Assembly: GCA_963823665.1 (NCBI GenBank)
Contig: CAWGMQ010000004.1
Coordinates: 96,001-160,000 of the forward strand
Length of the DNA stretch: 64,000 nucleotides
From: an uncultured Planctomycetota bacterium
Lineage (GTDB): Bacteria; Planctomycetota; Planctomycetia; Isosphaerales; Isosphaeraceae
Reading direction: 5' to 3'
Shown here: positions 16,505 through 62,399 of the stretch, one piece after another
Layout of the letters: the number at the start of each line of letters is the position of its first letter
How positions within the stretch are numbered: position 1 is the stretch's first letter
The notes under the pieces: model-generated
The model's input: the letters and a program-made list of their open reading frames with translations, nothing else
What the model was told of the DNA's origin: nothing
The model's database searches: none
Made by a program: the position numbers and the translations under genes

Positions 16505-17527
16505 TCACAAGGGGAGCACGCCGGTGTTCGGCAAAGCCCGTTCGAATTCTCTTAGTTCGGCTTCGGAGATGGCTGCGTGGTCGAGGATGAGCCAGCGAAG
16601 GCTGGTCAGCTTTCGCAAGTGAACGGAACCTGCATGCATCCTTCTTGTGCTCCGCAGTGTCAGCTCTTTGAGACAAGTGAGTCTTTTCAATGCGGCGAGC
16701 CCATCGTCGCTCGGTTCGCGCAGAGTGAGCTTAAGCTCCTTGAGGTTGGTGAGTGCCTTGAGCTGGGTGAGACCTCCCGCTGTGAGGTCGGGTAGCGAGA
16801 GACCGAGCGCGCTGATTTTGGTCATCGCGGCCAAATGTACGAGTCCCCCCTCGGTGAGATCACACCCCTGCAGATCGAGCGATTCGATCTCAGTCAGCCC
16901 CTTCAGGTGCAAGAGGCCTCGATCGGTCACCTCGCAAGTCGGCAGTCTGAGCACACGAAGGCGACGAAGCTGCGCGAGATTCGCCAGCCCGATGTCGGTG
17001 ACCTCGCCCTCGCAGGTGCGGAGAGACAATTCCCTGAGACTGGTGAGATCCTGCAGTGCGGAAAGGCTCAAGTCGTCGATATGGGAGTAACTGAGCCTCA
17101 GCTTCTGAAGTCGATGAAGGCCCTTCAAATGCTTCAGTTCGTCGTTCGACAGGGGCATTCCGCGAACTCGCAGCTCTTCGAGGTCGGCGAGACAGCCAAC
17201 GGCGGCGAGATGAGCCTCGGATGGCGGCCAGCGGATGGAAGCAACGGCGACATGGCCGAAGTAATCGACCCCGAGCGTGTCGACAATCCACTTCCGCCAT
17301 ACTGAGTCAGCCAGGTTCTGCCGGGCGCTGTAGATCCAGGCCTCCTTGTACAAAACGGCGCCGTCTGCTCGTTCGATCTCTGCCACCGCCTCGCGCTGCA
17401 AGCGCGCGGAATTGACGAGCCAGCCCAATCCGCCGCCAATGGCGAGGACGAGCAAGCTCGCGGTGCGTACATTGAGCCGCAAGTACCTCCGCCAGCGCCG
17501 CGACCTCAGGTGCGTTGAATCGTGCAT
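16505..17527 (-). CDS. Membrane-anchored LRR protein (paralog 1, about 9 repeats)
   Basis: WRRYLRLNVR + TM + ARLQREAVAEIE + LGVDYFGHV cap, then 24-aa LxxLxxLxxLxL repeats; GGAGG RBS. Confidence 0.9.
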   Translation of the reverse strand: MHDSTHLRSRRWRRYLRLNVRTASLLVLAIGGGLGWLVNSARLQREAVAEIERADGAVLYKEAWIYSARQNLADSVWRKWIVDTLGVDYFGHVAVASIRWPPSEAHLAAVGCLADLEELRVRGMPLSNDELKHLKGLHRLQKLRLSYSHIDDLSLSALQDLTSLRELSLRTCEGEVTDIGLANLAQLRRLRVLRLPTCEVTDRGLLHLKGLTEIESLDLQGCDLTEGGLVHLAAMTKISALGLSLPDLTAGGLTQLKALTNLKELKLTLREPSDDGLAALKRLTCLKELTLRSTRRMHAGSVHLRKLTSLRWLILDHAAISEAELREFERALPNTGVLPL

Positions 17528-17770
17528 CGTGGCCTCCTGCCACCGAGCTTCGGTATTCCCCTAACCCAAGCTGGCTCCCGGTTTCCGGATGACTGTACCG
17601 CGCAAGGCGCGCTCTGACCAGTTAAACATCGCCCCATGTGATGTGCGCGTGCCGGCGGCCTCCGAGTCGGTTCCGAAGCATCGCGAGCGCCTGGGCGCGT
17701 GGCATGCACGCGGAGTTTCGCGATACAATGCTACGCGAGATGAGCCGCTTCGGAAATCGAGCTTCGACCG

Positions 17771-19105
17771 GTGACAGCCCGGCAGGAACGAGATGAAGTC
17801 TGCGTTTGCATCGATCACGAGGCGATTTCGATCCAGCGGCCGGTGCCGACAGCAGCTCATGCCGTTTCTCGGCGCACCAGGCGCCTGGACCGCACCTTCC
17901 GGCGATTGATCCTTGCCGTCATGGGGTTCGTACTGGCCGCGAGCTGGATCGCGTGGCCATCCGGAAGCTCGACCGCCTTGGGGTTGCTGCAGCGCGCGAA
18001 ATCGGGCGCATTGCGTTCGCTCGGATTTGAACCCGACCGGTCGGAGATCGATGCCTACTGGCGCGACCGCCGTGATCGCCGTGAAGTCCGAACGCGCGAG
18101 CGATACAAGACGATATGCGAAGGGCTTGCACCCGAGAAACAGGCGTTCCTTCGCGCGGCCGGCATGGGCCCAGACCGAGCCGTGGTGCGATGGGGCAATT
18201 ACGACATGACGCTCGTGATGTCGGGTGAGGTCTTCGCGTCCGTCAATTCGGGCCGTGTCTACCAACTGCGCCCCTGCGTGCGTTCGTTCTGGATTCGGCA
18301 AATCGACACTTTCGGAATGGATTTCTGCGTGTTCCAGCTCCCGGATACACCTGAGATCCGCAGGCTTGCCGGGCCCGCAGGGGCGGAGGTCATTCCAGGG
18401 CTCTTTCAAACAACAAACTCCTGGGGTTGCCGGGGCCCGGAGCCCGACACGAACGCTCCTGTTCGTGGACTTGTGCTCGGCGACTCGTTCATGCAGGGTT
18501 ACCTGGTGGGTGACGAACAGACACCACCCGAACAGGTTCGACGATTCCTGCGTGACGAACTTGGCAAGGAAGTCTCGATCCTGAACACGGGAACCCTCGG
18601 TTACTGCCCCGAGCATTACTATTACACTTTGAAGGAATTCATTGGGAGGTTCCGACCCCGGTTCGTCGTGGTGGGCCTTTACTCGAACGATTTCGGCGAA
18701 GATGGCGACGTACTCTCGGGCCGAGCCGACTGGATCGAGGAGCAGCACTGGCTCAATTTGATTGTGCGGCTGTGCCGCTCACACAACGCTCTCTGCCTCT
18801 TCGCACCTGTGCCTTGTGAGATCCAGCTCATCGCCACGCGCAATCAGGGACACTGGCCCGGCGGGGCCGCCAACATCACGGGCGCGTCCGGGCGAAACTT
18901 CTGTGACCCGACCGAAGCGTTCATTGAAGAGGATCTGAAGTTCCGCCCGCCGTGGAATCCGCGAGGCATCATCCGGGGCGGCCGCTGCCATCTCTATAAT
19001 GGCGATCTTGGCGACGGCCACCTCTCACCCGCAGGGACGGCGCTCTGGGGCAAGGTCGTCGCGCGGCGGCTCGCTCAGCTCATCGCCAAGGAGCCGGAGG
19101 AATAG
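17771..19105 (+). CDS. SGNH/GDSL hydrolase-like membrane-anchored protein
   Basis: LGDSF, NTGTLGY, YSND and DGHL blocks; N-terminal TM. Start codon uncertain. Confidence 0.8.
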   Translation: MTARQERDEVCVCIDHEAISIQRPVPTAAHAVSRRTRRLDRTFRRLILAVMGFVLAASWIAWPSGSSTALGLLQRAKSGALRSLGFEPDRSEIDAYWRDRRDRREVRTRERYKTICEGLAPEKQAFLRAAGMGPDRAVVRWGNYDMTLVMSGEVFASVNSGRVYQLRPCVRSFWIRQIDTFGMDFCVFQLPDTPEIRRLAGPAGAEVIPGLFQTTNSWGCRGPEPDTNAPVRGLVLGDSFMQGYLVGDEQTPPEQVRRFLRDELGKEVSILNTGTLGYCPEHYYYTLKEFIGRFRPRFVVVGLYSNDFGEDGDVLSGRADWIEEQHWLNLIVRLCRSHNALCLFAPVPCEIQLIATRNQGHWPGGAANITGASGRNFCDPTEAFIEEDLKFRPPWNPRGIIRGGRCHLYNGDLGDGHLSPAGTALWGKVVARRLAQLIAKEPEE

Positions 19106-28952: not shown

Positions 28953-29240
28953 TGTATGCGGTTCAATGCACTGGTCGCGGCTCCGCGCGAATTGTTTCGC
29001 GAATTGCCTGGAAATGATTCCATGACACGCTTACGGTGGAATGTGGACAAAACTGCCGCTTGGTCAGCGGGCTCCGCGCGACGGATCCCGAGCACCTCAC
29101 ATGACGGGGCAAGACCGATGGCATATCGCTTGATTGCTTCGATGGTGGCGTTGATATCGGTCATCATGGCGCCGTCACCGGCGGTTTCCCAGGATGAAGT
29201 CTGGAGGGAGCATCTCTCGGCCGGATACGACGCGCACTAA

Positions 29241-32478: not shown

Positions 32479-33210
32479 TCAGCGACCGATTTCGACACCT
32501 GGCAGAAATCGTTTTAGCTGATCGATTCCGGCCTTGGTGACACGAGTGTCCTTCAGATGGGCCAAGCCGGTGTCGGTAACTTGGGTCCTTGGAAGTCGGA
32601 GCTCCGTCAGCTTGGTCAGTCCCTCCAGGTTGGCCAGGCCGGCGTCGGTGATGGCGCGACCCTCAAGAATCGTGAGCTTCGTTAGCTTGGTCATGCCTTT
32701 TAGATTGTTCAGGTCGCTATCTGTGAACATCGCATCACCGGAGTAGAGCTCGGTGAGCTCCCTCAGGCCTTTCAGATGCTTCAGGCTGGCCTTGTTATCG
32801 GGCGAATGATTGAAGCGGAATTGCTGCAATCGCGTGAGACGCCCGATGTGTGCGAGTGTCGTTTCGTCGGGGTTTCTGAGTGATACCGACGTGACGTGGC
32901 CGAAGTAGTCGATGCCGATGAGGTCGATGAGTCGCTGCGGTGCCCAAGGTTTGCCCGGCGAAATGAAGCGATCGTCGTTCCAGGTCCAGTCGTAGTACAC
33001 GCTGCCGCCGGCGTGCTCGATCGCCACCACGGCCTGGCGCTGGACTCGAGCGCTGTGGACCACGAATCCAACACCGCCGCCGATGACGAGCACAAGGACA
33101 ATCAGACCGCGAAGGCTGAAACGCAAAAAGCGACGTCCTGAAATGGTGGCGGTCAGGAGCTGGCCGAGGCCGCCGGTATCATGAACGCGCGTGGTCGAAG
33201 CTGCGGTCAT
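32479..33210 (-). CDS. Membrane-anchored LRR protein (paralog 2, about 4-5 repeats)
   Basis: RRFLRFSLRGLIVLVLVIGGG, GKPWAP and GIDYFGHVT, then LRRs; the last repeat is truncated in frame (HLK|DTRVT). Confidence 0.9.
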   Translation of the reverse strand: MTAASTTRVHDTGGLGQLLTATISGRRFLRFSLRGLIVLVLVIGGGVGFVVHSARVQRQAVVAIEHAGGSVYYDWTWNDDRFISPGKPWAPQRLIDLIGIDYFGHVTSVSLRNPDETTLAHIGRLTRLQQFRFNHSPDNKASLKHLKGLRELTELYSGDAMFTDSDLNNLKGMTKLTKLTILEGRAITDAGLANLEGLTKLTELRLPRTQVTDTGLAHLKDTRVTKAGIDQLKRFLPGVEIGR

Positions 33211-33246
33211 GCCGTCAGTGTACTCGTGGCTTCGACGCGTGGAGAA
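33211..33246 (-). promoter_or_regulatory. Putative leaderless promoter: TACACT 6 nt before ATG; second copy at 36056-36091
   Basis: Minus strand reads cgagTACACTgacggcATG here and cgagTACACTgatcgcATG at 36055; no SD in either. Confidence 0.55.
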
Positions 33247-33368: not shown

Positions 33369-34716
33369 TTACGGAGCCACTTCCACGTGCAGTTTCGGCA
33401 GGGCATCTCTGAGGTCTTGCAATCCAGCCTCGCTGATCTGCGACCTGGGTAGAGTCACGTTCTGCAAGGAACGAATTCCCTTCAGGTGGGGCAATCCGGC
33501 GTCGGTGACCTTGGTCTCCGCGAGGCCGAGTGACTGGAGCTTATTTAGTGCTTTCAGGTGTTCGAGGCCTCGGTCGCTCACCTGGGTCGAATAAAGTTCG
33601 AGAATTCGAAGGCTGCTAAGACCCTTCAGGTGCGCGAGACCTGAATCCGTGATTTTAGTCGAGTCTAGACAGAGCATATCAAGATTGCGGAGTTGCCCTA
33701 CTTCGACCAGGCCGTCGTCTGTGAACTTGCTGTCGCTGAGCGAAAGAAACTCGAGTTTATTGAGGGGCTTGAGTTGCGAGAAGCCTGCGCCGGTGATGGA
33801 GGTGTTTATCAGGGAAAGTGACCTCAGCTTGGTCAGTCCTGTCAGCCCGGCCAGGCCCGAGTCGGTGATTCGCTCCTCGTCGATCAGCGTGAGCTCTTCG
33901 AGATTGGCCAGTGACTTGAGATGGCACAGGCCCACGTCAGTGAGCGCTCTGCCGTCGAGCGCCAACTTGCGGAGCGATGTGAGCGCTGCGAGGCGCTGCA
34001 ATCGTGAGTCGGTGATCTTGGTTCCGATGAGTTCGAGGTGTTCGAGATGCGGTAGCTGGCAAACGACCGTGATTCCCGCGTCTGTGATCTCGTTCCAGTC
34101 GAGGACGAGCATCTTGAGGTTTGTGAGAACCCTTCAGGTGGGCCAGCCCAGCGTCCGTTATTTGGGTGCGTTCAAGGTCGAGCTCTTCGAGTCGCGTCAA
34201 GCGGGTCAGGTGGGCGAGGCCCTCGTCTCCAATTGCGTTATCTGCGAGGCGAAGTTGGCGTAGGGAAGTTATTCGGCATAACTTGAGCAAGCCTTGATGA
34301 GTCAGACTCGATCTGGGAAGCTCGAGTCTCTCGAGTTGCGTCAATGCGGCGATCGCGTTCACGTTGGCGTCGGTCACGGGACGTCGGAAGCTGTAGAGCG
34401 TGACGCTTGTGACGTGGTGGAAAAAATCTATTCCGATTCGATCGATGAACCATTTCGGCACCCAGCTTCTGGCCGGTGGATTAATCCCGGCGAGCGAACG
34501 TGCGGATGGGCCGAGGGGCTTTCTCGGTTCCCAATCGTATTCGACGAAGGAGTCAGGTGAATCCGCGAGTGCCGCCACTGCGGCGCGCTGGATTCGGGCG
34601 CTGTGGACCACGTATCCGAGCCCGCCGCCGATGGCGAGGACGAGCACGATGAGCGTGCGCATGCTGATGCGCAGATGGCGGCGCCAGGAATTGGAGACTG
34701 TGTTGGACTGTGGCAT
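33369..34716 (-). CDS. Membrane-anchored LRR protein (paralog 3, about 13 repeats), frameshift near 34130
   Basis: ORFs 33937..34716 and 33369..34112 join as HLKGLTNLKMLVLDWNEITDAG. Confidence 0.88.
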
Positions 34717-34855
34717 TTCGGCCTGGTGAGGATGGGCGGTTGATGTTGCGCTCGTGAGATCATTCTAGCGGGTGCGGCGAAGCGGTGGGAGCGTTACAGA
34801 TTGGCGCTGTTCGTTGCGCGAGGGTTCTATGACGAAGATTCTTCAGTGCGGATAG

Positions 34856-34960: not shown

Positions 34961-36055
34961 TTACCGAATGATTTGTACGCCAGGCAGAGTCTGTTTTAGT
35001 TCCTCTATTTGAGTCTGAGCAGCCTTCGCGCCGTCGATCGAGAGAATCTGGAGGCTTCTCAGCCCCTTCAGATGGACCAAGCCTTGATCGCTAATCTGGG
35101 TATGTGCGAGGTTCAGCCACGAGAGGTATGTGACCCCTTTCAAATGCTCAATTCCGGCATCGGACACTCTCGTATCGTTGAGATCGATGAAAAACAGCCT
35201 CTTCAGTCCGCTCAAGTGGGCCAGGCCGGCGTCGGTGATCTTGGTGCGAGCGAGTTGGAGTTGCCGAAGGTTTTTGAGCGGCTTGACGTGGGCCAGCCCG
35301 GCGTCGGTGACACCTGTGTCGTTGATCAAGAGGTGCTCGAGGCTCGTCATACCCGCGAGATTCTCGAGCCCGGCGTCCGTGACTTTGGAGCCGCTCACGT
35401 CGAGAGTCCAAAGGGACAGCCCACTCAGATTTGCAATTCCGCGGTCGGTGAGTCTGGTGTTGGCGAGGAGAATCGTTCTGAGGCTACTTAGACCTTGCAG
35501 GTGCACCAATCCGGCTCCTGATAGCTGCGTGTTGCTGATTTCAAGGACGCTAAGCTTGGTCATTCCCTTGAGATGCACTAGCCCAGCGTCCGTGATCTGA
35601 CTGCCGTGAACCGCGAGGGTGGAAAGATTGGTCAACGCCTCGAGACGAGCGACTTGAGCGTCGGTCATGCTCGGGTCGACGACGTTCAAGGATTCCAGTT
35701 GTGTGAGGCGTGCGACCCGTGCGATCAGGGCATCGGTTCGCGGTCTTGTGCCTGGAAGGACGACGGCGATAACGTGATCGAAGTAGTCGATACCGAACGC
35801 GTTGACGAGCCACACTGGTGCCCAGTACGCCCGACTGTAGGAGACGCTTCCACCGGCGCCGGTAATCGCCGCCACTGCGTCGTGCTGAATTCGAGCGCTA
35901 CGCGCGAGCCAGCCGAGCCCGCCGCCGATCACGAGCAAAAGGAGGATCAGCCCGCGCATGCTGAACCGGAAATAGCGACGCCAGGTAGTGGTGACACGCG
36001 GGAACTGGCTGGGCACGGCGGTCTTATGATCGCTTGTGGTTGAAGTTGCAAACAT
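34961..36055 (-). CDS. Membrane-anchored LRR protein (paralog 4, about 10 repeats)
   Basis: WRRYFRFSMRGLILLLLVIGGGLGW, FGIDYFDHV and TDAGL repeats. Confidence 0.9.
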   Translation of the reverse strand: MFATSTTSDHKTAVPSQFPRVTTTWRRYFRFSMRGLILLLLVIGGGLGWLARSARIQHDAVAAITGAGGSVSYSRAYWAPVWLVNAFGIDYFDHVIAVVLPGTRPRTDALIARVARLTQLESLNVVDPSMTDAQVARLEALTNLSTLAVHGSQITDAGLVHLKGMTKLSVLEISNTQLSGAGLVHLQGLSSLRTILLANTRLTDRGIANLSGLSLWTLDVSGSKVTDAGLENLAGMTSLEHLLINDTGVTDAGLAHVKPLKNLRQLQLARTKITDAGLAHLSGLKRLFFIDLNDTRVSDAGIEHLKGVTYLSWLNLAHTQISDQGLVHLKGLRSLQILSIDGAKAAQTQIEELKQTLPGVQIIR

Positions 36056-36183: not shown

Positions 36184-37412
36184 TCAGTGAAGGACCTCCA
36201 CGCTGGGCAACAATCGCTTTAGCTTATCGATTCCGGCCTGGGTGACTCGAGTGTGCGCGAGGAATAGTATCTTGAGCTTGGTTAGCCCTTTCAAGTTTTC
36301 CAGACCGGCGTCCGAGACGTGTGTCTGGGTAAGGCCGAAGGCGGTGAGCTGAGTCATGCTGTTCAGATAGGCCAGGCCGGCGTCGGTTACTGGCGATCCA
36401 CTCAAGTCCAGGTATGTGAGCTTTGTCAAGCTCGTCAGATGCACCAGCCCGTGCCGGAGATCTTCGAATGGTTCAGAGCCAGCATGCTCAGGTTGCTGAG
36501 TCGCCGTAGATTGGCGAGACCGTCGTCGGTGATGTGTGCGTCCATAGGGACGAGTCTCCTGGGGCTGGTCAGCTCTCCAGGATGCGCCTGTCCGGCGTCG
36601 GTGATCTGATCGCTGGAGACTCGCAGCGATGTGAGACTGTTCAACGACGTCAGATGCGCTAGTATCGCATGGATGGCCGGCGCGCCGCCCAGGTAGAGTT
36701 CAGCGAGATTGGTTTGCCCCTCAAGATGCACCAGCCCGGCGTCGGTGACCCGTGTGCCGTCGATTTCGAGGATTGAAAGCTTTGTGAGCCCCTTCAGATG
36801 GGCCAAGCCCGCATCGGTGACCGGGGTCCTTGGAAGGCGGAGCTCCGTGAGCCTGACCATTCTCTTCAGATGGGCCAGGCCCGCGTCGGTGACACCGCCG
36901 GCCTGATAAATCGTGAGCCTCGTTAGCCTGGTCATATCCTTCAGATTGGCCATGTCGTCATCGGTGATTGTCCCGGAGCCGCTGTAGAGCCGGGTGAGTT
37001 CGCTCAGGCCTTTCAGTTGCTCGAGAGCGGCCGTGTTCTCGGGCCATCGACCGAAGCTGAATTGCTGCAATCCGGCCAGACGCCCAACGTGTGCGAGTGT
37101 CGCGTCGTCTGGCTTACTGAGCCGTACCGCCGTGACGTGGCCGAAGTAATCGATGCCGACGAAATCGATGAGTCGTCGCGGTGCCCAGGGTTTGCTTGGC
37201 GGAATGAAGCGATCGTGATTCCACGTCCAGTTGTAGTACACGGTACCGCCGATGCGCTCGATCGCGGCCACGGCTTGGCGCTGGACTCGGGCCTCGTGAA
37301 CCAGAAATCCGAGCCCGCAGCTAATGCAAAGGACAAGCACAATCAGAGCGCGCACGCTGAAGCGCACATAGCGGCGCCAGGAGAATCGGGTGCGTTGTGG
37401 TTCACCGGACAT
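36184..37412 (-). CDS. Membrane-anchored LRR protein (paralog 5, about 12 repeats), frameshift near 36450
   Basis: ORFs 36435..37436 and 36184..36444; WRRYVRFSVRALIVLVL; closest relative of paralog 2. Confidence 0.88.
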
Positions 37413-44378: not shown

Positions 44379-45101
44379 ATGGCTGGTGCGCTTCGCGCGG
44401 TTGGAGTGGTCGTTGCTGCATTCTTGATCACGCTCATTTCTTCACTCGGCGCTTTCGCCGGTCAGGTCACAGTGCACTTCTCGGGTACCGTCACGCTGGT
44501 CGATACGAGCGAGATATCGGGCACGAAGGTCGGCAATTCGTTTAGCGGCATGCTAGTTTATGACTCCAGCACGCCGGAAACTTCGCTGGCGGGCTCTGAT
44601 CCGGCACAGTACACCGCTCGACCGCCACTTGCCTCGGGGTTGGGGATCACGCTCACGGTGGGCGGCAACACGTATGCTGCCGAGCTCGGCGACGTGCTTC
44701 AACTGACGGTCGGCAACGACTTGACGGGAACTTATCGCGATGTGTTTGCAGCTCGCGGCTACGTGAACGTGGGCGGCGCCGTCACGGGTGCAGAGTTCGG
44801 GGTTGCCGACCAGACGGGAACGGTGTTCTCCTCGACCGCGCTGCCGACGAGCTTGGACTTGAGCAAGTTCAGCGTGGGTACATTTGCCCTGGCTGGTACA
44901 CCGGGCTCAACCGACATCTTTGAGGGAACAATCAACCTGGTGCAAGCGGCCTCCGTGCCGGAACCGGGGTCTGCGGTCCTGCTGGGGATTGGAGCCCTGG
45001 CAGGGGGTTGCGTGCTGCGGTCGAGACGGGTTCGGCTTCGCCGATGTGCCGCTGATCAGGTCTGTCTATCGCACGACGGGCGGCAGTGGAACGTACGGTG
45101 A
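44379..45101 (+). CDS. PEP-CTERM sorting domain protein
   Basis: Signal peptide, Thr/Gly/Ser-rich body, then VPEPGSAVLLGIG + TM + basic tail. Confidence 0.9.
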   Translation: MAGALRAVGVVVAAFLITLISSLGAFAGQVTVHFSGTVTLVDTSEISGTKVGNSFSGMLVYDSSTPETSLAGSDPAQYTARPPLASGLGITLTVGGNTYAAELGDVLQLTVGNDLTGTYRDVFAARGYVNVGGAVTGAEFGVADQTGTVFSSTALPTSLDLSKFSVGTFALAGTPGSTDIFEGTINLVQAASVPEPGSAVLLGIGALAGGCVLRSRRVRLRRCAADQVCLSHDGRQWNVR

Positions 45102-45980
45102 AGGCTTGAAGCCTACGTTTGGCAAAACCTCGTTCAGCGTTTTCATTCCATCGACCGTGACTGCGGTGCCACTGAGATGGAGCTGCTTGAGGTTGCGGAG
45201 CGACTTCAGGTTCATCAGACCCGCGTCGGTGACTTGCGTGCCGCTCAGGTTTAGTTCGGTGAGGCCGGCCAACCCGTCCAGATGCGCCAGACCGGCGTCG
45301 CTTACCCGCGTGTTGCTCAGGTCGAGCGTGGATAGGTGCGTCAGTCGCTGGAGATGCGCCAACCCCGCGTCGGAGACCTGGCTACCGCTCAGGTCGAGCT
45401 CCGTGAGGTTCGTCCATTTGCTCAGTTGGGCCATGCCGGTGTCGGTGATTTGAGCACCGTGGAGCTGGAGCTCGGAGAGATTCCTCATACCCTCCAACTG
45501 CGCCAGCCTTTGGTCGGTGACATGCGCGCCCGGAAGGGAAAGCCACCGAAGGCTGGTCAGACCACCGAGCTGAGCAAACCCTGAGTCAGTGACATCCAAT
45601 CCTTCGATCCGCAATTTTTCGAGCGCGGTGAGGGAACCGAGATATGTCATCTCTCGATCCGAAGCGACGCCAAAGAAGTAGACGGTGGCGATGTGGTCGA
45701 CGTAGTCAATTCCGACAAGATTCACGAGCCATTCCGGCGCAGGAGCGCTTGCTCCGGGAGAGCCTAGAGCCGCTTGCGACTTATATGCCACGGTGGCTCC
45801 GGTCTTCTCAAGTGCTACGAGCGCCTCGTGCTGGATTCGTGCGCTGCGGACAAACCAGCCGAGGCCGGCGCCCATCACCAGTACAAGCACGATCAGGCCG
45901 CGCATGCTGAAACGCAGGTAGCGGCGCCAGGGATGGGCGATGGGGCCGGGAGTCATTTTGCTGGTTTCGTGATGCGCCAC
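45066..45980 (-). CDS. Membrane-anchored LRR protein (paralog 6, about 7 repeats)
   Basis: WRRYLRFSMRGLIVLVLVMGAGLGW, GIDYVDH and LRRs. Confidence 0.9.
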   Translation of the reverse strand: MAHHETSKMTPGPIAHPWRRYLRFSMRGLIVLVLVMGAGLGWFVRSARIQHEALVALEKTGATVAYKSQAALGSPGASAPAPEWLVNLVGIDYVDHIATVYFFGVASDREMTYLGSLTALEKLRIEGLDVTDSGFAQLGGLTSLRWLSLPGAHVTDQRLAQLEGMRNLSELQLHGAQITDTGMAQLSKWTNLTELDLSGSQVSDAGLAHLQRLTHLSTLDLSNTRVSDAGLAHLDGLAGLTELNLSGTQVTDAGLMNLKSLRNLKQLHLSGTAVTVDGMKTLNEVLPNVGFKPSPYVPLPPVVR

Positions 45981-45983: not shown

Positions 45984-46505
45984 CTAGTATCCCAAATTTA
46001 CTACTAAATAGGGCAGCGTTTGCTCCAGCTCGCGGACGGAGCGATGGCTGCTTACTCCACCGCGGAGATCGAGGGTTCGGAGGTTCTTGAGGCGCTTGAG
46101 CCGGGCGAGGCCCGTGTCTGTCAACTCGAGCGTGTCGGTGATGACCAGGGTCCGGAGCTGGTCGAGATTGCTGATGTGGGTCAATTCCGTGTCGGAGGGA
46201 TGCGGAATGCTCACGTATGCGACGTTGCCGAAGCAATCGATGCCGAACGCGTCCACAAGCCATCGCGGGGCCAGAGGCTTCGTGCCGCGCGGGAAGTGGC
46301 CGTTCCTCCATTGCCAGTCATAAAGGATCTGTCCGTGGGCCTTCGTGATGGCCGCTACTGCCTCGCGCTGGGTGCGGGCGGTGCGGGCGAACCAGGCGAG
46401 CCAGAGGCCGAGCATGAGCACCACGAGAATCAGGCTGGCGATGTTGAACCGGAACCGCTGACGCCGAGGAGTTGAATCGGGCTCGGAATTGCCGTGATCG
46501 GTCAT
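45984..46505 (-). CDS. Membrane-anchored LRR protein (paralog 7, about 2 repeats)
   Basis: RFRFNIASLILVVL, YDWQWRNG...KPLAPRWLVDAFGIDCFGNV, two LRRs and a C-cap; 3 bp from paralog 6. Confidence 0.88.
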   Translation of the reverse strand: MTDHGNSEPDSTPRRQRFRFNIASLILVVLMLGLWLAWFARTARTQREAVAAITKAHGQILYDWQWRNGHFPRGTKPLAPRWLVDAFGIDCFGNVAYVSIPHPSDTELTHISNLDQLRTLVITDTLELTDTGLARLKRLKNLRTLDLRGGVSSHRSVRELEQTLPYLVVNLGY

Positions 46506-46712: not shown

Positions 46713-46718
46713 TATAAT
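46713..46718 (+). promoter_or_regulatory. -10 box TATAAT upstream of the kinase-STAND gene
   Basis: Perfect hexamer 42 nt before ATG 46761 in high-GC DNA. Confidence 0.4.
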
Positions 46719-46760
46719 CTGACTTTGAAGCTGACGACGCTGCCTTCTCGCGGGTTGATT

Positions 46761-49700: not shown

Positions 49701-51133
49701 GCTGGGCCGAGGCTCTGCGTCCGGTGCGGAAGCACCTGCTGTCGTCCCTGGCCGCGCTGCTTGTGGAGAGTGATCAGGACGCGGCCCGTCGTCTCACGAT
49801 CACCCGTCTCTATGGCGACTACTCGCAAGGACTGGCGGAGCCTTTTGCCCCACTCGAGGAAGAGGCGGCCGGGATCATCAAGCCGAATGGTGGTGACGGC
49901 GGCGCGGTCACCGATTCCGTCACTGATCCGAACGCCCGCCTGGCGCAGCAGCGACGGCAGGCCAACGCCGCGGTGGCTCTGGCCGCACTGGGACGCTGGG
50001 AGATGGCGCGGCTGTTGCTCGAGCACACGCGCAATCCGACGATGCGCAGCTATGTGATCGACCGCCTGGCATCGGGCGGAGCCGATGCCCGCGGGCTCGA
50101 CGCACTGATCAGCGACGGCTCGGAGGTTTCAGTGCGGCGGGCGTCCCTGCTGGCGCTCGCGGAGTTTGACGAACAGAACCTACCCTTTCCGGAACGGGAG
50201 CGGTTGGCCCCGTGTCTGGCCGCGATGTACCGCGATGACCCTGACCCGGGCGTGCATGCCGCGGCCGGCTGGCTGCTGGGCCGGTGGGGAGAACCGGGGC
50301 GACTGGTCGATGCGAACCGTTCCCTCGCGAAGGGCGCGCCAATCGGGTCTCGACGCTGGTATCTCAACTCGCAGGGTCAGACGCTTGTGCTCATTCCGCC
50401 GGGCAAATTTCGGCAAGGCGAGGAACCAGGGCGATCCGAGTACTGTGTCGACCACGGATTCGCTCTCGCCGCCCGCGAAGTGAGTGTGGCCGAGTTTCGC
50501 GTTTTCCGGAGTAGTTACAAGTGCAACCGCGCATTCGCTTTGACCGAAGATTGCCCGGTGCATGAGGTGACGTGGTACGACGCGGCGGCCTATTGCAACT
50601 GGCTCAGCGAGCAGGATGGCATCCCCAAAGAGCAATGGTGCTATCTTCCCAACGACAAGGGGCAGTACGCAGAAGGAATGAAGATCGTGCCCGATTACCT
50701 AAGCCGGTCGGGATACCGGTTGCCGACGGTAAACGAGTGGGAATATGCGTGCCGGGCCGGCAGCGTGACGCGCTGGCAGTTCGGGGAGGCTGAAGACCTG
50801 ATCGCCAGATACGCGTGGTGCGTTGTGAACTCATCGAGCCGGCTGCATCCGGTGGGGAGTCTGCGCCCGAATGATCTCGGCCTGTTCGACATGCACGGCA
50901 ACGCCTGGGAGTGGTGCCAGAATCGGGCCGGGAGCGCTTCCGCCGACGGCAAGTCTTCTGCCGTTCGCAACGTCGTGAGCGACGCCGACCGATGGCTCGC
51001 GCGCAGCGGCGGATTCGGCCACGGTCTCCTCACCGTGCAGTCCGCCAATGCAATCGACATTCATGTCAAGGAGGGCGGCGGCGACCTGGGGTTTCGCCCG
51101 GCGCGAAGCCTGCGCATCAACGATAGACGCTGA
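46761..51133 (+). CDS. Ser/Thr kinase - STAND-type P-loop NTPase - TM - HEAT-like - FGE/sulfatase-modifying domain fusion; frameshift near 47535
   Basis: Kinase: LGEGSYG, HRDVKPGN, DFGLA, GTPAYMSPEQ. NTPase: GPSGCGKSS, IILDQFEQ, VRDDF, YQLTHDYL. FGE: RLPTVNEWEYACRAG, GLFDMHGNAWEW, GFRPAR. Confidence 0.9.
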
Positions 51134-51845
51134 GGCTCGGCAAAGCCTTCTTCAGGTCCGCCGCGCCAGCGTCCGTGACCGGAGTCTGCACGACGTTCAA
51201 GACGGTCAGGTTTCGCAGATCTTTCAGATGCGCCAGACCGGCGTCGGTGACCTGGGTGCCGGCGAGGTTGAGCTCGGTGAGACCCGTCAGGTTTTTCAGG
51301 TGCGCCAGGCCGGTGTCGGTGATGTGCGTACCGTTCAATACGAGGACGGACAGACGCTTGAGGCCGGTGAGATGGATCAGGGCGGCGTCGGTGATTGGCG
51401 TGTAGTCGAGGTCGAGTCTCGAAAGGGCCTTCAAACCAGCCAGATGCGCCAGGCCCGCGTCGCTGATGGGCGAGCCCGTGAGACTCAGGCGCTCGAGTTG
51501 TGTGAGACGCGCGATGTGTGCGAGATCCGAATCGGTTTCCGCGCCCCCGTAGAACGCGACCTGGGTGACGTGCCCGAAATAGTCGATGCCGACGCGATCC
51601 ACGAGCCAATCGGGCACCCATGGTTTTGTGGCCGGGTAGACCCTTCCATTCCGCCACTCCCAGTCGTACTGGACCATGCCGCCGGCGGCCGCGATCGCCG
51701 CGGCCGCGCCGCGCTGGTTGCGCGCGCTGTGGACGAGCCATCCCAGGCCGCCGCCTGATACGAGCACCAGCAGGATCAGGCCGCGGATGCTGAAGCGCAG
51801 GTATCGCCGCCAGGGACGCGGGCTTGGCTCGGGGTGACCAGTCAT
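51117..51845 (-). CDS. Membrane-anchored LRR protein (paralog 8, about 5 repeats)
   Basis: WRRYLRFSIRGLILLVLVSGGGLGW, YDWEWRNG, GIDYFGHVT and LRRs. Confidence 0.92.
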   Translation of the reverse strand: MTGHPEPSPRPWRRYLRFSIRGLILLVLVSGGGLGWLVHSARNQRGAAAAIAAAGGMVQYDWEWRNGRVYPATKPWVPDWLVDRVGIDYFGHVTQVAFYGGAETDSDLAHIARLTQLERLSLTGSPISDAGLAHLAGLKALSRLDLDYTPITDAALIHLTGLKRLSVLVLNGTHITDTGLAHLKNLTGLTELNLAGTQVTDAGLAHLKDLRNLTVLNVVQTPVTDAGAADLKKALPSLSVYR

Positions 51846-58045: not shown

Positions 58046-58142
58046 GTGGTTCTCCCCGGGAGTGCATGTTGACCAGAGAAGTCTCCCGCTTAGAATGCAA
58101 ACATGACGTGAACCAGTCGTGGGCGCTGATTCACAAGCGCAG

Positions 58143-58730
58143 TTAAGCCTTCGCGAGCTCCGGCGCAATCTCGATTGGTTTGAGCGTGGCGAAGTCGAAG
58201 TCTTCGAACCTCAATCGGAGCTCGAGACCGTTCGTGAACAGGATCGAGTGACGGAACTCGTACCCATCGCCCATGGGGATTAAATCGACTTCATCGTATA
58301 ACCACTCAAGATTGGGAGATTGATCGTCTCCAGCATATTGGTGGAGGTGGGCTTCCTCGATCAATGCACATCGGTATTGAAGGACAAGAATCTCCCTCGG
58401 CGGTGTGTCCAACTGAAGATGGATCCAGAACGACGGCAATCGGCCATCGTGCGGGGTTTGCTGCGCTCCGAGAGTCAGGTCCGCGAGGTTGCCATTTCCC
58501 AGCTCGCCAGGCGCGCAGATACCGAAGGGCGAATGGGAGATTACCCGCGCATCGTGAAGGTAGTGCTGTTCGATTAGCGCCCGCAAGCGTTGTGGCAGTT
58601 TCTCAGCGATTTCGTTTAACTGTCGCAGATACTCTCGCGATCGTAATTCGAACTCCTGGTGAGCTTCGAATGCGACGTTGTCATCTTCGGAGCCGAATCG
58701 CTCGAGCAGGTCGGGTGTGAAGAATCTCAT
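58143..58730 (-). CDS. Acidic hypothetical protein, candidate immunity/antitoxin
   Basis: MRFFTPDL, YLHDARV and WLYDEVDL...HSILFTNG; ATGA-coupled to the upstream gene; lower GC. Confidence 0.7.
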   Translation of the reverse strand: MRFFTPDLLERFGSEDDNVAFEAHQEFELRSREYLRQLNEIAEKLPQRLRALIEQHYLHDARVISHSPFGICAPGELGNGNLADLTLGAQQTPHDGRLPSFWIHLQLDTPPREILVLQYRCALIEEAHLHQYAGDDQSPNLEWLYDEVDLIPMGDGYEFRHSILFTNGLELRLRFEDFDFATLKPIEIAPELAKA

Positions 58731-59116
58731 GGCTTCTTCCTTGCCTTGCGGCGATCGGTTTCGTAGAAGGCGTGTCCGTGTGGTGAGCGTGACTTTTGGT
58801 GAAAGTGCGGCAGGGCCATCAGTCCTGCGGTGCTGGTGTGCGGGAACTGGGGCTTGCTGGGTACTCCCACCTGGACCTCGATTCCGTAGGCTCGGGCGCG
58901 ATTCGCCGTCGTTTGGATACCGCGAACCACGATGTCCTGCCCGTTCCGCCTCCGCGTTATCGCTGTGGCTTCGTCGATTTCTTGCCCGTATTCTACGGCA
59001 CCGGAGGGGCCTGAAGCCAGTTCAGCCTCGTGGATGGTCGTTGCAGGTGAGGCCGCGGAGTGCTCAGTTGGTTGAATGGCTTCGTCATCGACGCTTTCGT
59101 TTTTATCGTCGGTCAC
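58727..59116 (-). CDS. His-rich small protein, candidate toxin nuclease domain
   Basis: RRRNGQDIVV...PH...ALPHFHQ...GHAFYE with a basic tail; GGGAG RBS before GTG. Confidence 0.65.
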   Translation of the reverse strand: MTDDKNESVDDEAIQPTEHSAASPATTIHEAELASGPSGAVEYGQEIDEATAITRRRNGQDIVVRGIQTTANRARAYGIEVQVGVPSKPQFPHTSTAGLMALPHFHQKSRSPHGHAFYETDRRKARKKP

Positions 59117-59159
59117 GTTAACTCCCGAAACGATTCCAGAACGGCCTCATGGGCGCGCA

Positions 59160-60068
59160 TCAACGAAGGATACTTACACGCGGCAGAGCCCGTTGCAACT
59201 CCGCCGCTCCGGCGTTGGTGACATCAGTGAATCGTAGATCAAGGGACGACAGCTTGCTCAGTCGCTTGAGCTGCGAGAGGGCCGCGTCCGTGATCTCCGT
59301 GCGCGAGAAATCAAGCTTCGTGAGATTTGTCAGACCCCGCAGATGGGCGGCCCCGGCGTCGGTGATCTTCAAACGCCCAAGCTCGAGCTCCGCGAGGTTT
59401 GTCAGCCCCGTCAGGTGGGCAAGCCCGGCGTCGGTGATCCGTACATTGTTGGCACCGATGCGGGAAAGGTTGGTCGATCCGATCGCGGCGGGCTCTCCGA
59501 GGCGAAGACAGGAGAGGTTGGTCAATCCTTTCAGGTGGGCAAGCCCGGTGTCGGTGACCCGAGTTTGCGAGAGGTCGAGTTCCGAGAGGCGCGTGAGCCC
59601 TTTCAGGTGCGCAAGCCCGTCGTTGGTGACGTCGGTGGAGCTGAGGTCAAGGCATGAAAGTTGGGATAGAACCTTGAGATCCGCCGTGAATGCAGTGCCG
59701 TTTCTGATGGTCGACTTAAGAACTTTTCGTCGCCGCCACTGCTCGAATTGTCCAAGCACAAGATCCATTCCCCTTTGCCAATACGAGACTCGAGTGACGT
59801 GACCGAAGTAATCCAATCCGACGAGGTCCACCAACCGCTTGGGCGCCCAAGGCTTTCCTCCCGATATCGGCGTTCCGTTGCTCCATTCCCAGTTGTAATT
59901 GACTTCGCCGCCAGCTTTGGTGATTGCCGCCACGGCCTCACGCTGGATACGTGCGCTCCGGACGAGCCATCCCAGCGCGGCCCCGATCGCAAGCACAAGT
60001 AAGATCAGACCCCGCACGCTGAAGCGGAGGAGTTTTCGCGGAGTACGAGCGACGGGGCTGGCCTGCAT
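59160..60068 (-). CDS. Membrane-anchored LRR protein (paralog 9, about 6-7 repeats)
   Basis: LLRFSVRGLILLVLAIG, YNWEWSNG, GKPWAP and GLDYFGHVT; one repeat carries an insertion. Confidence 0.9.
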   Translation of the reverse strand: MQASPVARTPRKLLRFSVRGLILLVLAIGAALGWLVRSARIQREAVAAITKAGGEVNYNWEWSNGTPISGGKPWAPKRLVDLVGLDYFGHVTRVSYWQRGMDLVLGQFEQWRRRKVLKSTIRNGTAFTADLKVLSQLSCLDLSSTDVTNDGLAHLKGLTRLSELDLSQTRVTDTGLAHLKGLTNLSCLRLGEPAAIGSTNLSRIGANNVRITDAGLAHLTGLTNLAELELGRLKITDAGAAHLRGLTNLTKLDFSRTEITDAALSQLKRLSKLSSLDLRFTDVTNAGAAELQRALPRVSILR

Positions 60069-60080
60069 TGTGACCGCCCT

Positions 60081-60428
60081 TCATGAATAAACTTCGGTGT
60101 TCGATCCGGGACGGCACACATGAGGGGGAGGCGACCGCTCTTGCAACTCAGAAGCATTCTGTAGTTCGTTCACTCCAGCGTCGGTGACCTTGGTCCCTCG
60201 AAGGTCGAGCACCGAGAGTCGCGTGAGATTTTTCAGATTCAACAGGCCGACGTCGGTGATCTGTGTGTGCGAGAGACTGAGTTTCGAAAGGCTGGTCAGC
60301 CGATTCAGATGTGCGAGGCCGGCGTCGGTGATCTGAGTGCTGACGAGCACGAGAACGATCAGGCCGCGCAGGCTGAATCGCAAGTGTTTTCGCCAGGATC
60401 GCGACGCCGTGCGGGATTGATCGGACAT
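60081..60428 (-). pseudogene. Internally deleted LRR gene (paralog 10)
   Basis: WRKHLRFSLRGLIVLVLV is fused in frame directly to STQITDAGL; the second half of the TM and the cap are missing, and the C-terminus is aberrant. Confidence 0.8.
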
Positions 60429-60533
60429 GGCGGGATCCTGCGATCTGAGGGTCGATGTCGGATGGCGCCACTCATTATCCGGCGTGCGCGAGGCGATTTG
60501 GAAGAACGTGCTCGATCTGATGGCCGTGCCAGA

Positions 60534-61265
60534 TCAACGTGAGATCTGCAGGCTGGGCAACGCTCGCTGTAGTTCTTTGACCCCGGCGTCGGTGACCCTG
60601 GTGCCGGTGAGGCTCAATTGCGAGAGATTGTCCAGCCGCTTGAGGTGCACAAGGCCGGCGTCGGTGACACGGGTGCCATCGAGGCGCAGTGTCGAGAGAT
60701 TGGTCAGCCCCTCCAGATGCACCAGCCCGGCGTCGGTGACACGGGTGCCGTCGATGTCGAGAGTCGTGAGCTTGGTCAGCCCCTTCAGATGCGCCAAGCC
60801 GGCGTCGGAGATTCGCGTGCCCTCAAGGTTGAGCCGCGACAGGTTGCCGAGCGCTGACAGATGCGCGAGACCTGCGTCGCTGACGGATGACTGGTCGAGC
60901 CGCAGTTGTTGCAGGCCGAAGAGACGCCCGACATGCTCGAGGGCCAAATCGGTTCCCGCCCAGGATCCGTTGAGCCAGACAACGGTGACATGACTGAGAT
61001 AGTCGACGCCAATCCGATTCACGAGCCATCCTGGCTTCGGGACCCTCGCGGAATGGACCAAGTTGGTTTTCGTCCATCCCTGGTCGTACTTGACCAGACC
61101 GCCGGCGCGCATGATCGCCGCCACCGCGTCGCGCTGAATTCGCGCGCTCCGCACGATCCAACCCATCGAGCCGCCGAGCAAGAGCACCAGGACGATCAGG
61201 CCGCGGACGCTGAAGCGCAGCAAACTTCGACCGGAACGCGAGGCGGGCTTGGGCTGATCAGGCAT
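60534..61265 (-). CDS. Membrane-anchored LRR protein (paralog 11, about 5 repeats)
   Basis: LLRFSVRGLIVLVLLLGG, GVDYLSHVT and near-identical GTRVTDAGL repeats. Confidence 0.92.
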   Translation of the reverse strand: MPDQPKPASRSGRSLLRFSVRGLIVLVLLLGGSMGWIVRSARIQRDAVAAIMRAGGLVKYDQGWTKTNLVHSARVPKPGWLVNRIGVDYLSHVTVVWLNGSWAGTDLALEHVGRLFGLQQLRLDQSSVSDAGLAHLSALGNLSRLNLEGTRISDAGLAHLKGLTKLTTLDIDGTRVTDAGLVHLEGLTNLSTLRLDGTRVTDAGLVHLKRLDNLSQLSLTGTRVTDAGVKELQRALPSLQISR

Positions 61266-61379
61266 GTGGCAACCATCAGGGTCGGTCGCAAGTTTGCTTT
61301 GACGAAGTCAGTCTATTCAACCGATGGAGAAGAACGGAATAAGGAAGCCAGGAACGGATGGAAGTGGATCCGCACGTAT

Positions 61380-62399
61380 TCAGCGGCTTATCCTCAATTC
61401 CGGTAATGCTCGATAGAGCTCTTCCACTCCGGCGTCGGTGACTTGAGTGTCGCTCAAGCCGAGCGACTCGAGGCTGGTCATCCCCTTGAGATTGGCTAAC
61501 CCAGCATCGGTGACCTCCGTTTCGTCAAGGACGAGCTCGGAGAGGTTTTTCAGGGTTTTCAGTTGCGAGAGCCCGGCGTCAGTGACTTGCGTGCCGGTCA
61601 GGATGAGGCCGGATAGGCTGGAGATTCCTTTCAGGTGCGCCAGCCCGGCATCGGTGATCTGAGTTCCGCTGAGGTCGAGGAAGGAGAGTTTGGCGATGCC
61701 TTTCAAATGCGCCAGCCCGGCGTCTGTGATCCGAGTACCGATCAGATCGAGCGACGAGAGCTTGTTGAGCGATTCTAGATGTGGGAGCCCGGCATCGGTC
61801 ACTTGAGTGCCGCTCAAGCCGAGCGCCTGGAGGTTGGTCAGTCCCTTGAGGTCGGCCAGCCCGGCATCGGTGACCTTGGTATCGTCAAGGAAGAGCTCGG
61901 AGAGGTTTTTGAGGGCTTTCAGATGCACGAGCCCCGCATCGGACACCTGAGTTTCGTTGAGGTGGAGGATCGAGAGGTTGTTCAGGGTGCGCAGATGCTC
62001 CATTCCGGCGTCGCTCAGAGACGAGCCTTCGAAATTCAGATAGGTCAGTCGAGCGAGGCGCCGTACGTGTAATGCCGCGGCATCTGGCGCCCGCGACCGC
62101 CAGGTGAGCCAGACGCAGGTGACGTGACCGAAATAATCGACTCCGAGATGATCCACGAGCCACTTCGGCGCCCGCGGCTTTCCTGCGGGAAGGGGATTCG
62201 CGTCGCTCCACTGCCACTCATACTGGACGGAGCCGCCGGATTGCGTGATCGCGGCGACGGCATCGCGCTGGATGCGCTCGGCGCGCACGATCCAACCCAG
62301 GCAGCCGCCCAACAAGAGCACGACAACGATCAGGCCGCGCATGCTGAAACGCAGATAGCGACGCCACTGAGCGCGTATGGGCTGGGGTTGCTCGGCGAT
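61380..62399 (-). CDS. Membrane-anchored LRR protein (paralog 12, about 9 repeats); apparent ATC start
   Basis: The frame extends upstream of ATG 62342 as IAEQPQPIRAQWRRYLRFSMRG, with a GAGG SD before ATC 62399. Confidence 0.88.
   Translation of the reverse strand: MAEQPQPIRAQWRRYLRFSMRGLIVVVLLLGGCLGWIVRAERIQRDAVAAITQSGGSVQYEWQWSDANPLPAGKPRAPKWLVDHLGVDYFGHVTCVWLTWRSRAPDAAALHVRRLARLTYLNFEGSSLSDAGMEHLRTLNNLSILHLNETQVSDAGLVHLKALKNLSELFLDDTKVTDAGLADLKGLTNLQALGLSGTQVTDAGLPHLESLNKLSSLDLIGTRITDAGLAHLKGIAKLSFLDLSGTQITDAGLAHLKGISSLSGLILTGTQVTDAGLSQLKTLKNLSELVLDETEVTDAGLANLKGMTSLESLGLSDTQVTDAGVEELYRALPELRISR

Follow-up and report, generated by a model that had tools for sequence, protein, structure and literature searches.

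What role can a group of tandem, membrane-anchored LRR genes have in a planctomycete, and does it represent a variable receptor repertoire? A sequence-only reading of the 64,000-nucleotide stretch analysed here (the window) had proposed a birth-and-death array of periplasmic binders similar in design to plant receptor-like proteins or lamprey VLRs. Our analysis supported this interpretation in part: turnover, clustering, predicted topology and concave change between paralogs stood, the VLR-like aspect was not supported. We regard it as somewhat probable that the family is a repertoire of periplasmic binders, each of fixed specificity, that recombines and undergoes birth and death, with its densest cluster in the window.

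Architecture, topology and promoters

Twelve LRR genes in five clusters, all on the minus strand, were confirmed in the window, with the N-module, 24-aa repeats and, where intact, the C-cap (Table 1). The positions formerly given as gene starts are their low-coordinate, stop-codon ends. Where intact, they share one layout: a leader, a single transmembrane (TM) helix and a cap precede the GALA-like LRRs, and a C-cap follows. The 2-13 LRRs reported before agree with 3-14 strand motifs after the N-module, the last one counted. Over 684 repeats variation was, as claimed, highest on the concave strand: positions 3, 5 and 7 of the repeat have an entropy of 3.7-3.9 bits, exposed convex positions one of 2.4-3.4 bits.

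The GL-LRR (CC-LRR), reported from Gemmata and Rhodopirellula, is described as a repeat of 24 residues that carries Val at position 5, Leu at positions 10 and 16, and a VTD motif (Kajava et al. 2008, PMC2244805). The 684 repeats correspond to it at these core positions (V 54%/I 31% at 5, L 74% at 10, L 68% at 16), at the apolar positions 13, 19, 22 and 24 (L 88, 93, 91 and 78%) and in the motif (T 65%, D 83%). GALA effectors have an N-terminal F-box, whereas the window family lacks one (no Pfam hit) and carries a TM leader and cap instead; positive selection on GALA proteins is reported for their convex side (PMC2244805), in contrast to the fast concave side of the paralogs studied here.

A periplasm-facing orientation was upheld by prediction: the proteins are predicted to be single-pass, with the N-terminus inside and the LRRs outside, and in 91 of 110 leaders the N side carries the higher net charge. 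The model of the 51117 protein (pLDDT 93.6) showed one helix (12-53) followed by parallel strands. A Small-x-x-x-Gly-aromatic motif was present in 183 of 231 leaders, and a stalk Gln and Ala are near-invariant; 49 of the 231 contain a Tat-type RRx-hydrophobic-hydrophobic motif. Class III (prepilin) signals follow the pattern F(T/S)LxE, with Gly at -1 and Glu at +5. The family leaders deviate from this, with Arg at -1 (83%) and Gly at +5 (65%), and their profile match to prepilin leaders is gapless but weak (26-46% probability). Prepilin ancestry of the leader is no more than a lead. A homodimer prediction (two copies, alignment A2) scored 0.00 and weighs neither way. The N-module matched nothing in Pfam or NCBIfam; against PDB sequences its profile detected weak nanobody matches only (best E 7e-4), which we dismissed as chance, the structural model being helical in the N-module. 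The concave face was net negative in 66 of 87 genes. Asp on the concave strand belongs to the general LRR consensus, and the acidic bias was therefore left out of ligand inference.

Eight of the twelve window genes have their own -10-like box, and these boxes stand at a fixed distance from the gene start. Boxes were found in 34 of 72 upstream regions of the own genome vs 8.1 in shuffles (maximum 14 of 200), with enrichment absent in the relative G249 (2/34) and in more distant genomes (3/30). A strict sigma-70 scan of positions 59000-62700 revealed 0 sites, so that positional enrichment is the only basis for the boxes. Leaderless transcripts are predicted for the 32479 and 34961 genes, with starts at 33210 and 36055.

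Table 1. Positions of family genes and associated elements in the window (genes are named in the text by their low coordinate).
Feature	Position	Strand	Description
Family gene	16505..17527	-	340 aa, 9 strand motifs, divergent
Family gene, likely chimera	32479..33210	-	243 aa, 5 strand motifs
Inferred crossover interval	33067..33078	-	Within TM-coding DNA of 32479 gene
-10-like hexamer TACACT	33217..33222	-	Ends 6 nt before ATG of 32479 gene
Family gene	33369..34716	-	Split at 34128; 448 aa, 14 strand motifs in X2-contig reading
-10-like hexamer TAGAAT	34762..34767	-	45 nt before ATG of 33369-34716 gene
Family gene	34961..36055	-	364 aa, 11 strand motifs
-10-like TACACT	36062-36067	-	6 nt before ATG of 34961 gene
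Family pseudogene	36184..37412	-	Frameshift near 36449; one repeat without framework Leu
-10-like TAGAAT	37458-37463	-	36184-37412 pseudogene
Family gene	45066..45956	-	296 aa, 8 strand motifs; syntenic ortholog in G001
Family gene	45984..46505	-	173 aa, 3 strand motifs; syntenic ortholog in G001
Family gene	51117..51845	-	242 aa, 6 strand motifs; syntenic ortholog in G001, 81% aa
Predicted TM	51732-51788	-	In 51117 gene
Family gene	59160..60068	-	302 aa, 7 strand motifs; inversion junction relative to G001
Deleted family gene	60081..60428	-	115 aa, without C-cap
-10-like GATAAT	60474-60479	-	60081-60428 gene
Family gene	60534..61265	-	243 aa, 6 strand motifs
-10-like TAGACT	61310-61315	-	60534 gene
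Family gene	61380..62399	-	339 aa, 10 strand motifs
-10-like TAGACT	62445-62450	-	61380 gene

Copy number, turnover and recombination

The own genome contains about 80 related loci, 12 of them in the window. N-module matches numbered at least 84 in this genome and at least 65 in the congener G001; genome counts are lower bounds, with 150 of 346 candidates scored. Across the host's taxonomic family they ranged from 0 to 83 per genome, with the highest counts in genomes of 13-16 Mb; high-completeness relatives with 1-4 copies exist, and G249 (6.9 Mb) carries a 20-gene array of long open frames, head to tail. The N-module hit 8555 clusters at 50% identity. A description of the family was not found in the literature, and PADLOC gave no hit for three family proteins. 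Clustering held: 81 loci in 16.46 Mb would give 0.31 genes per 64 kb by chance, and the window has 12; 35 of 39 neighbouring pairs are co-oriented. Rather than a single locus, the window is the densest stretch of a family spread through the genome. No tRNA gene lies in the window; among 28 loci scanned, one was found near each of three other clusters of this genome.

Alignment with G001 corroborated birth-and-death turnover, as nine of the twelve window genes have no counterpart at the syntenic place. The 16505..17527 gene is absent at its syntenic site (gap of 196 bp in G001 vs 2770 bp here), G001 has two extra genes within the block shared with the window, and similarity of the 45066 gene to G001 starts at the gene start, where G001 carries an extra family gene. 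One-to-one orthologs, named beforehand as evidence against such turnover, were found for part of the family: three of the twelve window genes (45066, 45984, 51117) in synteny and about a dozen more genome-wide, with repeat number kept in 11 of 15 pairs. The family tree, a quick tree, speaks for our interpretation together with the synteny.

As assembled, three of the twelve genes (33369-34716, 36184-37412, 60081-60428) are disrupted or incomplete. The extra base at 34128 is absent from a contig of run X2 (depth 2.7, one contig) and is therefore likely an assembly error, whereas the frameshift near 36449 is matched letter for letter by an X2 contig and is thus real. An in-frame deletion in 60081-60428 fuses mid-TM to an LRR, and such leader-to-LRR deletions recur. 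The 61380 gene has ATC where its paralogs have ATG (first ATG at 62342), and its length is counted from the ATC. Much of the apparent decay lies within the background break rate of the assembly (0.42 per kb). In the window pieces covered by the X1 and X2 contigs (sparse, from two runs), to which this comparison is limited, these contigs showed zero substitutions against the family genes and no alternative alleles.

Chimeric genes displayed incongruent 5' and 3' ancestry, with the switch inside leader/TM DNA; one triplet was assessed by permutation and the remainder by segment identity. The 32479 gene likely combines a promoter and 5' end of the 34961 type with a body of the 36435 type (0/300 permutations), and promoter-to-stalk DNA of the 60534 gene is 82-85% identical to that of G001 gene L049:1638, compared with 44-55% in the body. 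High upstream identity could stem from selection on a regulatory element and not from conversion, and the window family genes share no DNA tracts of at least 88% identity over 60 bp. Turnover by recombination in the common promoter-leader-TM DNA is likely. S. aureus lpl makes a better parallel to the family than VLRs do. The lpl genes are likewise reported as tandem envelope paralogs with homologous recombination at a conserved intra-ORF stretch (Tsuru and Kobayashi 2008, PMC2568036), and the switch at a conserved intragenic stretch, with incongruent 5'/3' ancestry, is found here as well. The family differs from lpl in that its conserved stretch lies at the start of the gene and covers promoter, leader and TM. 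Its body forms an LRR solenoid, a lipobox is missing, and the copies occupy dozens of loci.

Selection on concave and convex faces

Between orthologs (12 pairs, a single comparison of two genomes) dN/dS was 0.36 (CI 0.26-0.50) for concave, 0.49 for convex and 0.12 for framework positions; between paralogs (seven pairs, picked for low synonymous distance and with dS near saturation) it was 0.86, 0.45 and 0.18. Concave change between paralogs thus proceeds at about twice the convex rate, as anticipated. Purifying selection on concave residues, which the earlier interpretation had set against itself, was observed between orthologs, with the paralogs fast. The concave/convex ratio was 1.91 in paralogs vs 0.74 in orthologs (bootstrap P 0.021), 2.39 vs 0.69 with a looser cut, and 2.63 in seven further pairs from four other genomes; repeats may be misregistered in pairs with unequal repeat number. 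A dN/dS above 1 is not shown, the paralog concave interval (0.50-1.22) spanning 1. In the two youngest within-genome pairs the concave face was no faster than the convex one (0.02 vs 0.09; 0.08 vs 0.11), and the window pair 32479/36435 gave 0.26 vs 0.33 (8 codons). An all-against-all comparison of repeat pairs binned by synonymous distance was dropped because binning biases dN/dS.

Possible roles of the repertoire

Receptors whose LRRs sense ligands and signal through the conserved TM (GxxxG-type) to a common membrane partner (a Ser/Thr kinase, an ECF sigma fusion or small leader-sharing proteins) would fit the leader motif and stalk residues, the kinases at eight and ECF-type proteins at seven loci of the own genome (raw counts), and small membrane genes that lack LRRs but resemble the family in their leader (12 of 56 cases lie no more than 5 kb away, each in the same orientation, vs 1.9 expected). 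We nevertheless consider such receptors unlikely: beyond kinases and ECF sigma fusions no neighbour recurred among 102 neighbours in this genome or in other genomes, the window contains no small leader-sharing gene, and the G249 array has no such partner alongside. The proteins have no cytoplasmic signalling domain, as remarked earlier; a linked signalling partner or toxin was not found. Even less probable is a mostly non-adaptive origin, with a recombination-prone cassette proliferating in large genomes and paralog concave change reflecting relaxed constraint. The paralog interval including 1, the high copy numbers of the 13-16 Mb genomes and the real pseudogenes and deletions agree with this, and drift has been argued for chlamydial LRR families (Domman et al. 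2014, PMC4209131). The NEX1/PEX families of Parachlamydiaceae, from a related superphylum, are described there as birth-and-death LRR families that are likewise large and lineage-specific, vary in repeat number and include tandem arrays and pseudogenes, but as secreted F-box/U-box effectors of intracellular bacteria, whereas the window family is membrane-anchored. Purifying selection on orthologs in every site class, the 20 long open frames retained by G249 in its 6.9 Mb genome, and a break rate that covers much of the decay argue against drift as the main cause.

Surface adhesins or host/eukaryote-contact proteins resembling Listeria internalins are suggested by fold matches and by database names of relatives such as 'internalin A'. 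A domain anchored in the inner membrane stays under the outer membrane, which is where the predicted anchor would put the LRR. An outer membrane in planctomycetes has literature support (PMC8567305). Since NCBIfam internalin models score 22-53 bits vs cut-offs of 1050-1600 and the repeat type is GL/CC-LRR, adhesins are a very improbable explanation. Plant receptor-like proteins and lamprey VLRs are membrane-anchored, capped LRR solenoids with a variable concave face and no signalling domain. Here, by contrast, the topology is opposite (N-terminal anchor), orthologs are conserved, no sign of somatic assembly appeared in the pieces covered by contigs, and a co-receptor was not found. Genes with constant ends and a variable middle, intergenic DNA that hardly varies in some arrays, and the recurring deletions might indicate a programmed, VLR-like diversifying system with dedicated machinery, which we hold to be extremely unlikely. 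An integron cassette mechanism was rejected, as no integrase in the genome exceeded its cut-off (best TIGR02249, 112.6 bits vs 265). The genes carry -10-like boxes, and a conserved 3' element stands behind many stop codons of related clusters; searching the window for this element gave no hit. A diversity-generating reverse transcriptase was rejected too: the one at L021, near a cluster, exceeds the cut-off for the group II intron model TIGR04416, and the window has no TR-like tract. The lack of long identical tracts among window genes and the substitution-free contig pieces likewise speak against programming, and a hypervariable repertoire is at odds with stable orthologs whose concave residues are under purifying selection.

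For the favoured repertoire of fixed-specificity binders, the mechanism would build on what is shown: the architecture, copy number, gain and loss against the congener, mosaics switching in leader/TM DNA, and -10-like boxes at fixed distance. An uncleaved, N-in signal anchor is predicted to continue into a stalk helix that caps the solenoid. Duplication or swap would then release or drive the concave face, which purifying selection would subsequently hold. Taken together, these steps from architecture to specificity are quite probable. A concave face that shifts between paralogs and is then held implies that paralogs would bind different targets; fast between copies and conserved between species, it likely gives each copy its own envelope target. 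The last and weakest step is tentative: the proteins may act in the periplasm as orphan immunity proteins do, by binding and sequestering proteins that enter it, an action suggested by the missing cytoplasmic domain and linked partner. LRRs are listed among immunity proteins, and homogeneous polyimmunity loci are described as tandem, distantly related paralogs with no intervening toxins (Zhang et al. 2012, PMC3482391), an arrangement also seen here. Imm-LRR appears in the list beside T5SS toxins, and its phyletic list is without planctomycetes, although an additional file may name some (PMC3482391). For the window family a cognate toxin link was not found: among the 102 neighbours, many without any Pfam hit, there was no polymorphic toxin domain (E 1e-6); one SUKH and one weak DUF4085 neighbour were all that was seen.

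Speculatively, and with low probability, soil Isosphaeraceae may possess an innate-immune-like repertoire of self-promoted periplasmic LRR cassettes, in which promoter-leader-anchor DNA would serve as the swap site for LRR and small membrane genes, the concave face would be positively selected after duplication to catch new toxins or phage proteins, and the common anchor would dock on one membrane partner. For the design of binders, the repeats provide a scaffold that is both natural and uniform. Immunity in plants and animals is marked by large LRR receptor families that recombine, and about 80 anchored LRR genes with a concave face variable between paralogs and held between orthologs offer a testable bacterial parallel in a free-living bacterium.

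Architecture and intactness of the window genes

Six-frame translation recovered all 12 minus-strand genes described by the sequence-only reading; the coordinates it had listed as gene starts are their stop-side ends. An alignment of 11 window N-modules (leader, transmembrane (TM) segment and stalk/cap before the repeats) showed an average column identity of 58%, and the twelfth, in gene 60081, is cut within the TM segment and fused in frame to an LRR. Pfam detected only LRR models in these proteins and no match for the N-module, and a search of the N-module alone against NCBIfam revealed nothing. The leaders contain a single hydrophobic segment (mean Kyte-Doolittle value 2.1) with greater net positive charge on its N-side in 91 of 110 cases, features that predict an N-in anchor and periplasmic LRRs. 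An AlphaFold2 model of the 51117 protein (pLDDT 93.6, pTM 0.87; 76-row alignment) places residues 12-53 in one predicted helix (TM plus stalk), followed by a first strand, an inserted loop and then regular repeats; Foldseek with this predicted fold returned LRR domains only (Roco LRR, internalins, NLRP1). By residue counts per repeat position, the repeats satisfy the GL-LRR definition of Kajava et al. (PMC2244805), a repeat class that is already known. The family leader is similar in register to the prepilin N-terminus but lacks Gly-1 and Glu+5, and its profile matches to prepilin leaders were weak; its motifs also differ from the planctomycete export motifs described in PMC8567305.

Two of the 12 genes, 33369-34716 and 36184-37412, are frameshifted in the assembly. 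The extra base of the former, at 34128, is missing from a contig of the soil sequencing run X2 (one contig, depth 2.7), and this gene is therefore likely intact, with 448 aa. The break near 36449 in the latter is matched exactly by a second X2 contig, which identifies a real pseudogene. Of 47 conserved non-family genes, 16 are broken in the G000 (source genome) assembly, a background rate of 0.42 per kb. The 37 of 79 family loci that appear broken by a crude rule are of the order given by this rate, so the assembly by itself does not establish decay of the family.

Features of the window and of compared loci (G001, congener; G249, compared genome; L-numbers, retrieved loci; X1, sequencing run)
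Feature	Location	Strand	Observation
Sulfatase-like gene	window 22194-23542	+	split by frameshift; cf. assembly break rate of ~0.42 per kb
DDE transposase element	window 29237-30870		99.9% identical to copy at G000:C5:1303000; one extra base at 30458 in both X1 and X2
Kinase, nSTAND1 NTPase and FGE-sulfatase gene	window 46494-51133	+	split in two ORFs; inserted among family genes; missing at G001 counterpart place
Inversion region	window 58100-62500		G001:C5:2579-2657 kb
Weak DUF4085 match	window 58143-58730	-	E 0.001, below cut-off; co-oriented downstream of 59-62 kb cluster
ELWxxDGT repeat protein	window 62420-64000	+	
Small leader-sharing genes	L003:7437, 13474, 16591; L025, L034, L048, L129 and others		
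Family gene between SUKH (SMI1/KNR4) and DUF1963 genes	L012:2835-5495		
Two adjacent RT genes	L021:7999-11782		inside family cluster; the first is of group II intron type by score
G249 array	L137-L138, G249:C4:1931914-1960764		20 long ORFs plus 2 with leader-to-LRR deletions

Expansion, gain and loss, and mosaic genes

The N-module profile gave at least 84 matches in the 16.46 Mb source genome (best 150 of 346 candidates scored), which merge to about 80 loci (79 in the break count, 81 positions in the density count). The window holds 12 in 64 kb against 0.31 expected, and C4:112-217 kb of the same contig holds 23; 29 of 81 loci are isolated, and 35 of 39 neighbouring pairs up to 20 kb apart share a strand. 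G001 has 65 matches, and a broader profile detected between 1 and 63 in each of 45 of 60 other Isosphaeraceae genomes. In a class sample, matches occur in 7 of 11 genomes of one other taxonomic family and in none of the 13 genomes from each of two more; a search with the narrow profile of 150 genomes sampled across the phylum had no match. The N-module profile matches 8555 clusters (E 0.001), the top two named relatives are from uncultured Isosphaeraceae, and ESM Atlas neighbours are Planctomycetota clusters, LRR-labelled or unnamed. In G249 (6.9 Mb), the long family ORFs lie head to tail with a single interruption by an unrelated exported gene, gaps mostly below 130 bp and a median aa identity between copies of 38%.

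The syntenic region in the congener is G001:C5:2.58-2.70 Mb. A single inversion distinguishes the two, and its junction coincides with the 59-62 kb family cluster. A quick tree of 103 full N-modules revealed one-to-one G001 orthologs for 45066, 45984 and 51117. Gene 16505 is missing from the syntenic site (gap of 196 bp versus 2770 bp in the window), as are the four genes at 32-37 kb (2890 versus 8871 bp); the four at the inversion junction are without whole-gene G001 orthologs, and within the shared block G001 carries two additional family genes. In G001, a single co-oriented run of 17 matches corresponds to the window clusters plus the C4:199-217 kb cluster. Most paralogs are old: no tract of at least 88% identity over 60 bp links the window genes to other retrieved G000 loci.

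Segment identities revealed mosaic genes. Gene 32479 is 34961-like before and 36435-like (the body within 36184-37412) after a switch at 33067-33078 in the TM segment (informative sites 61:24, then 10:33; 0 of 300 permutations). Gene 60534 shows 85% and 82% identity to a G001 gene (L049:1638) from the -10 box to the stalk end, then 44%, and the ortholog match of 45066 begins at the gene start, where G001 has an extra gene. About 12 genes of other clusters have upstream DNA 85-89% identical and bodies at background, and two leader-to-LRR deletions of the 60081 type occur in G249. In L003 and related arrays, genes whose bodies are unrelated share an 80-bp upstream block at 85-89% identity, and a conserved ~45 bp element lies 3' of the stop in intergenic DNA. 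A -10-like hexamer was found 45-95 bp upstream of the module in 34 of 72 G000 genes (shuffle mean 8.1), 19 of 43 G001 genes (4.5) and, without enrichment, 2 of 34 in G249. In the window, eight of the 12 genes are preceded by the box; its end lies about 45 nt upstream of the start for four of them (five, should 61380 start at ATC) and 6 nt upstream of the ATG for 32479 and 34961. A strict promoter scan did not call it.

The mosaics show the same pattern that Tsuru and Kobayashi (PMC2568036) described for the S. aureus lpl genes. In the G000 genome no integron integrase match exceeded the cut-off, and the RT near a family cluster is of group II intron type; we therefore infer that ordinary homologous recombination drives the swapping. 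The proposed analogy to plant receptor-like proteins and lamprey VLRs stands as a likeness in design, not as a VLR-like mechanism.

Variation of the concave face

Diversity across repeats is greatest at positions 3, 5 and 7 of LxxLxLxx. Pairs for the main test were picked on synonymous distance outside concave sites. The 12 ortholog pairs showed dN/dS of 0.36 (0.26-0.50) for concave, 0.49 for convex, 0.12 for framework and 0.31 for N-module sites, and the 7 paralog pairs 0.86 (0.50-1.22), 0.45, 0.18 and 0.37, respectively. The concave/convex ratio is 1.91 in paralogs versus 0.74 in orthologs (bootstrap P 0.021), or 2.39 (11 pairs) versus 0.69 (13 pairs) with a looser cut, with repeat misalignment possible where repeat numbers differ. 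The difference is confined to the concave class, an internal control. In a smaller paralog set the interval of this ratio spans 1 (4 pairs, 0.75-3.41), and a concave excess is missing from the two youngest paralog pairs and from the pair within the window. Seven pairs from four other genomes (G226, G249, G252, G189) gave a ratio of 2.63 (1.98-3.84); older pairs are close to dS saturation, and the 1.53 from the seven-pair set is therefore not evidence of positive selection.

Among 15 hand-picked ortholog pairs (dN/dS 0.37 concave, 0.43 convex), 11 differ by no indel of repeat size, large deletions occur in 2, and the remaining 2 are only partly alignable. Fixed repeat number in orthologs, named by the sequence-only reading as counter-evidence to its proposal, thus applies to most pairs, and the concentration of variation on the concave face that it described holds across repeats and paralogs but not between orthologs.

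Neighbours and proposed function

From 107 immediate G000 neighbours listed, 102 proteins were scanned, some added window genes included, and these revealed no recurring partner domain and no polymorphic toxin; in low-copy relatives the family neighbourhoods are unlike each other. Small 1-2 TM genes with a similar RF[RT][IL]R leader (85% profile match to the family leader) gave 69 profile matches in G000, none within the window. Of 56 non-training genes, 12 have a family gene no more than 5 kb away, all 12 co-oriented, at 7 loci (1.9 expected; maximum 8 in 5000 draws), an excess that training the profile on genes near the family may inflate. They represent one partner link, a statistical one. 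Only the L012 locus resembles a mixed immunity cluster.

Birth-and-death LRR families are already described for Chlamydiae in PMC4209131, and a literature search covering the main texts of mostly open-access papers found no paper on the present family. What is new is the concave-specific rate contrast, together with the chimeras and promoter boxes of the window, the corrected assembly error and the array of 20 genes. The paralogs presumably each have specific ligands. We favour sequestration over receptor-like signalling, drift, adhesion or programmed diversification: the family proteins are probably periplasmic binders that, by analogy with orphan immunity, a concept taken from PMC3482391, may sequester their targets.
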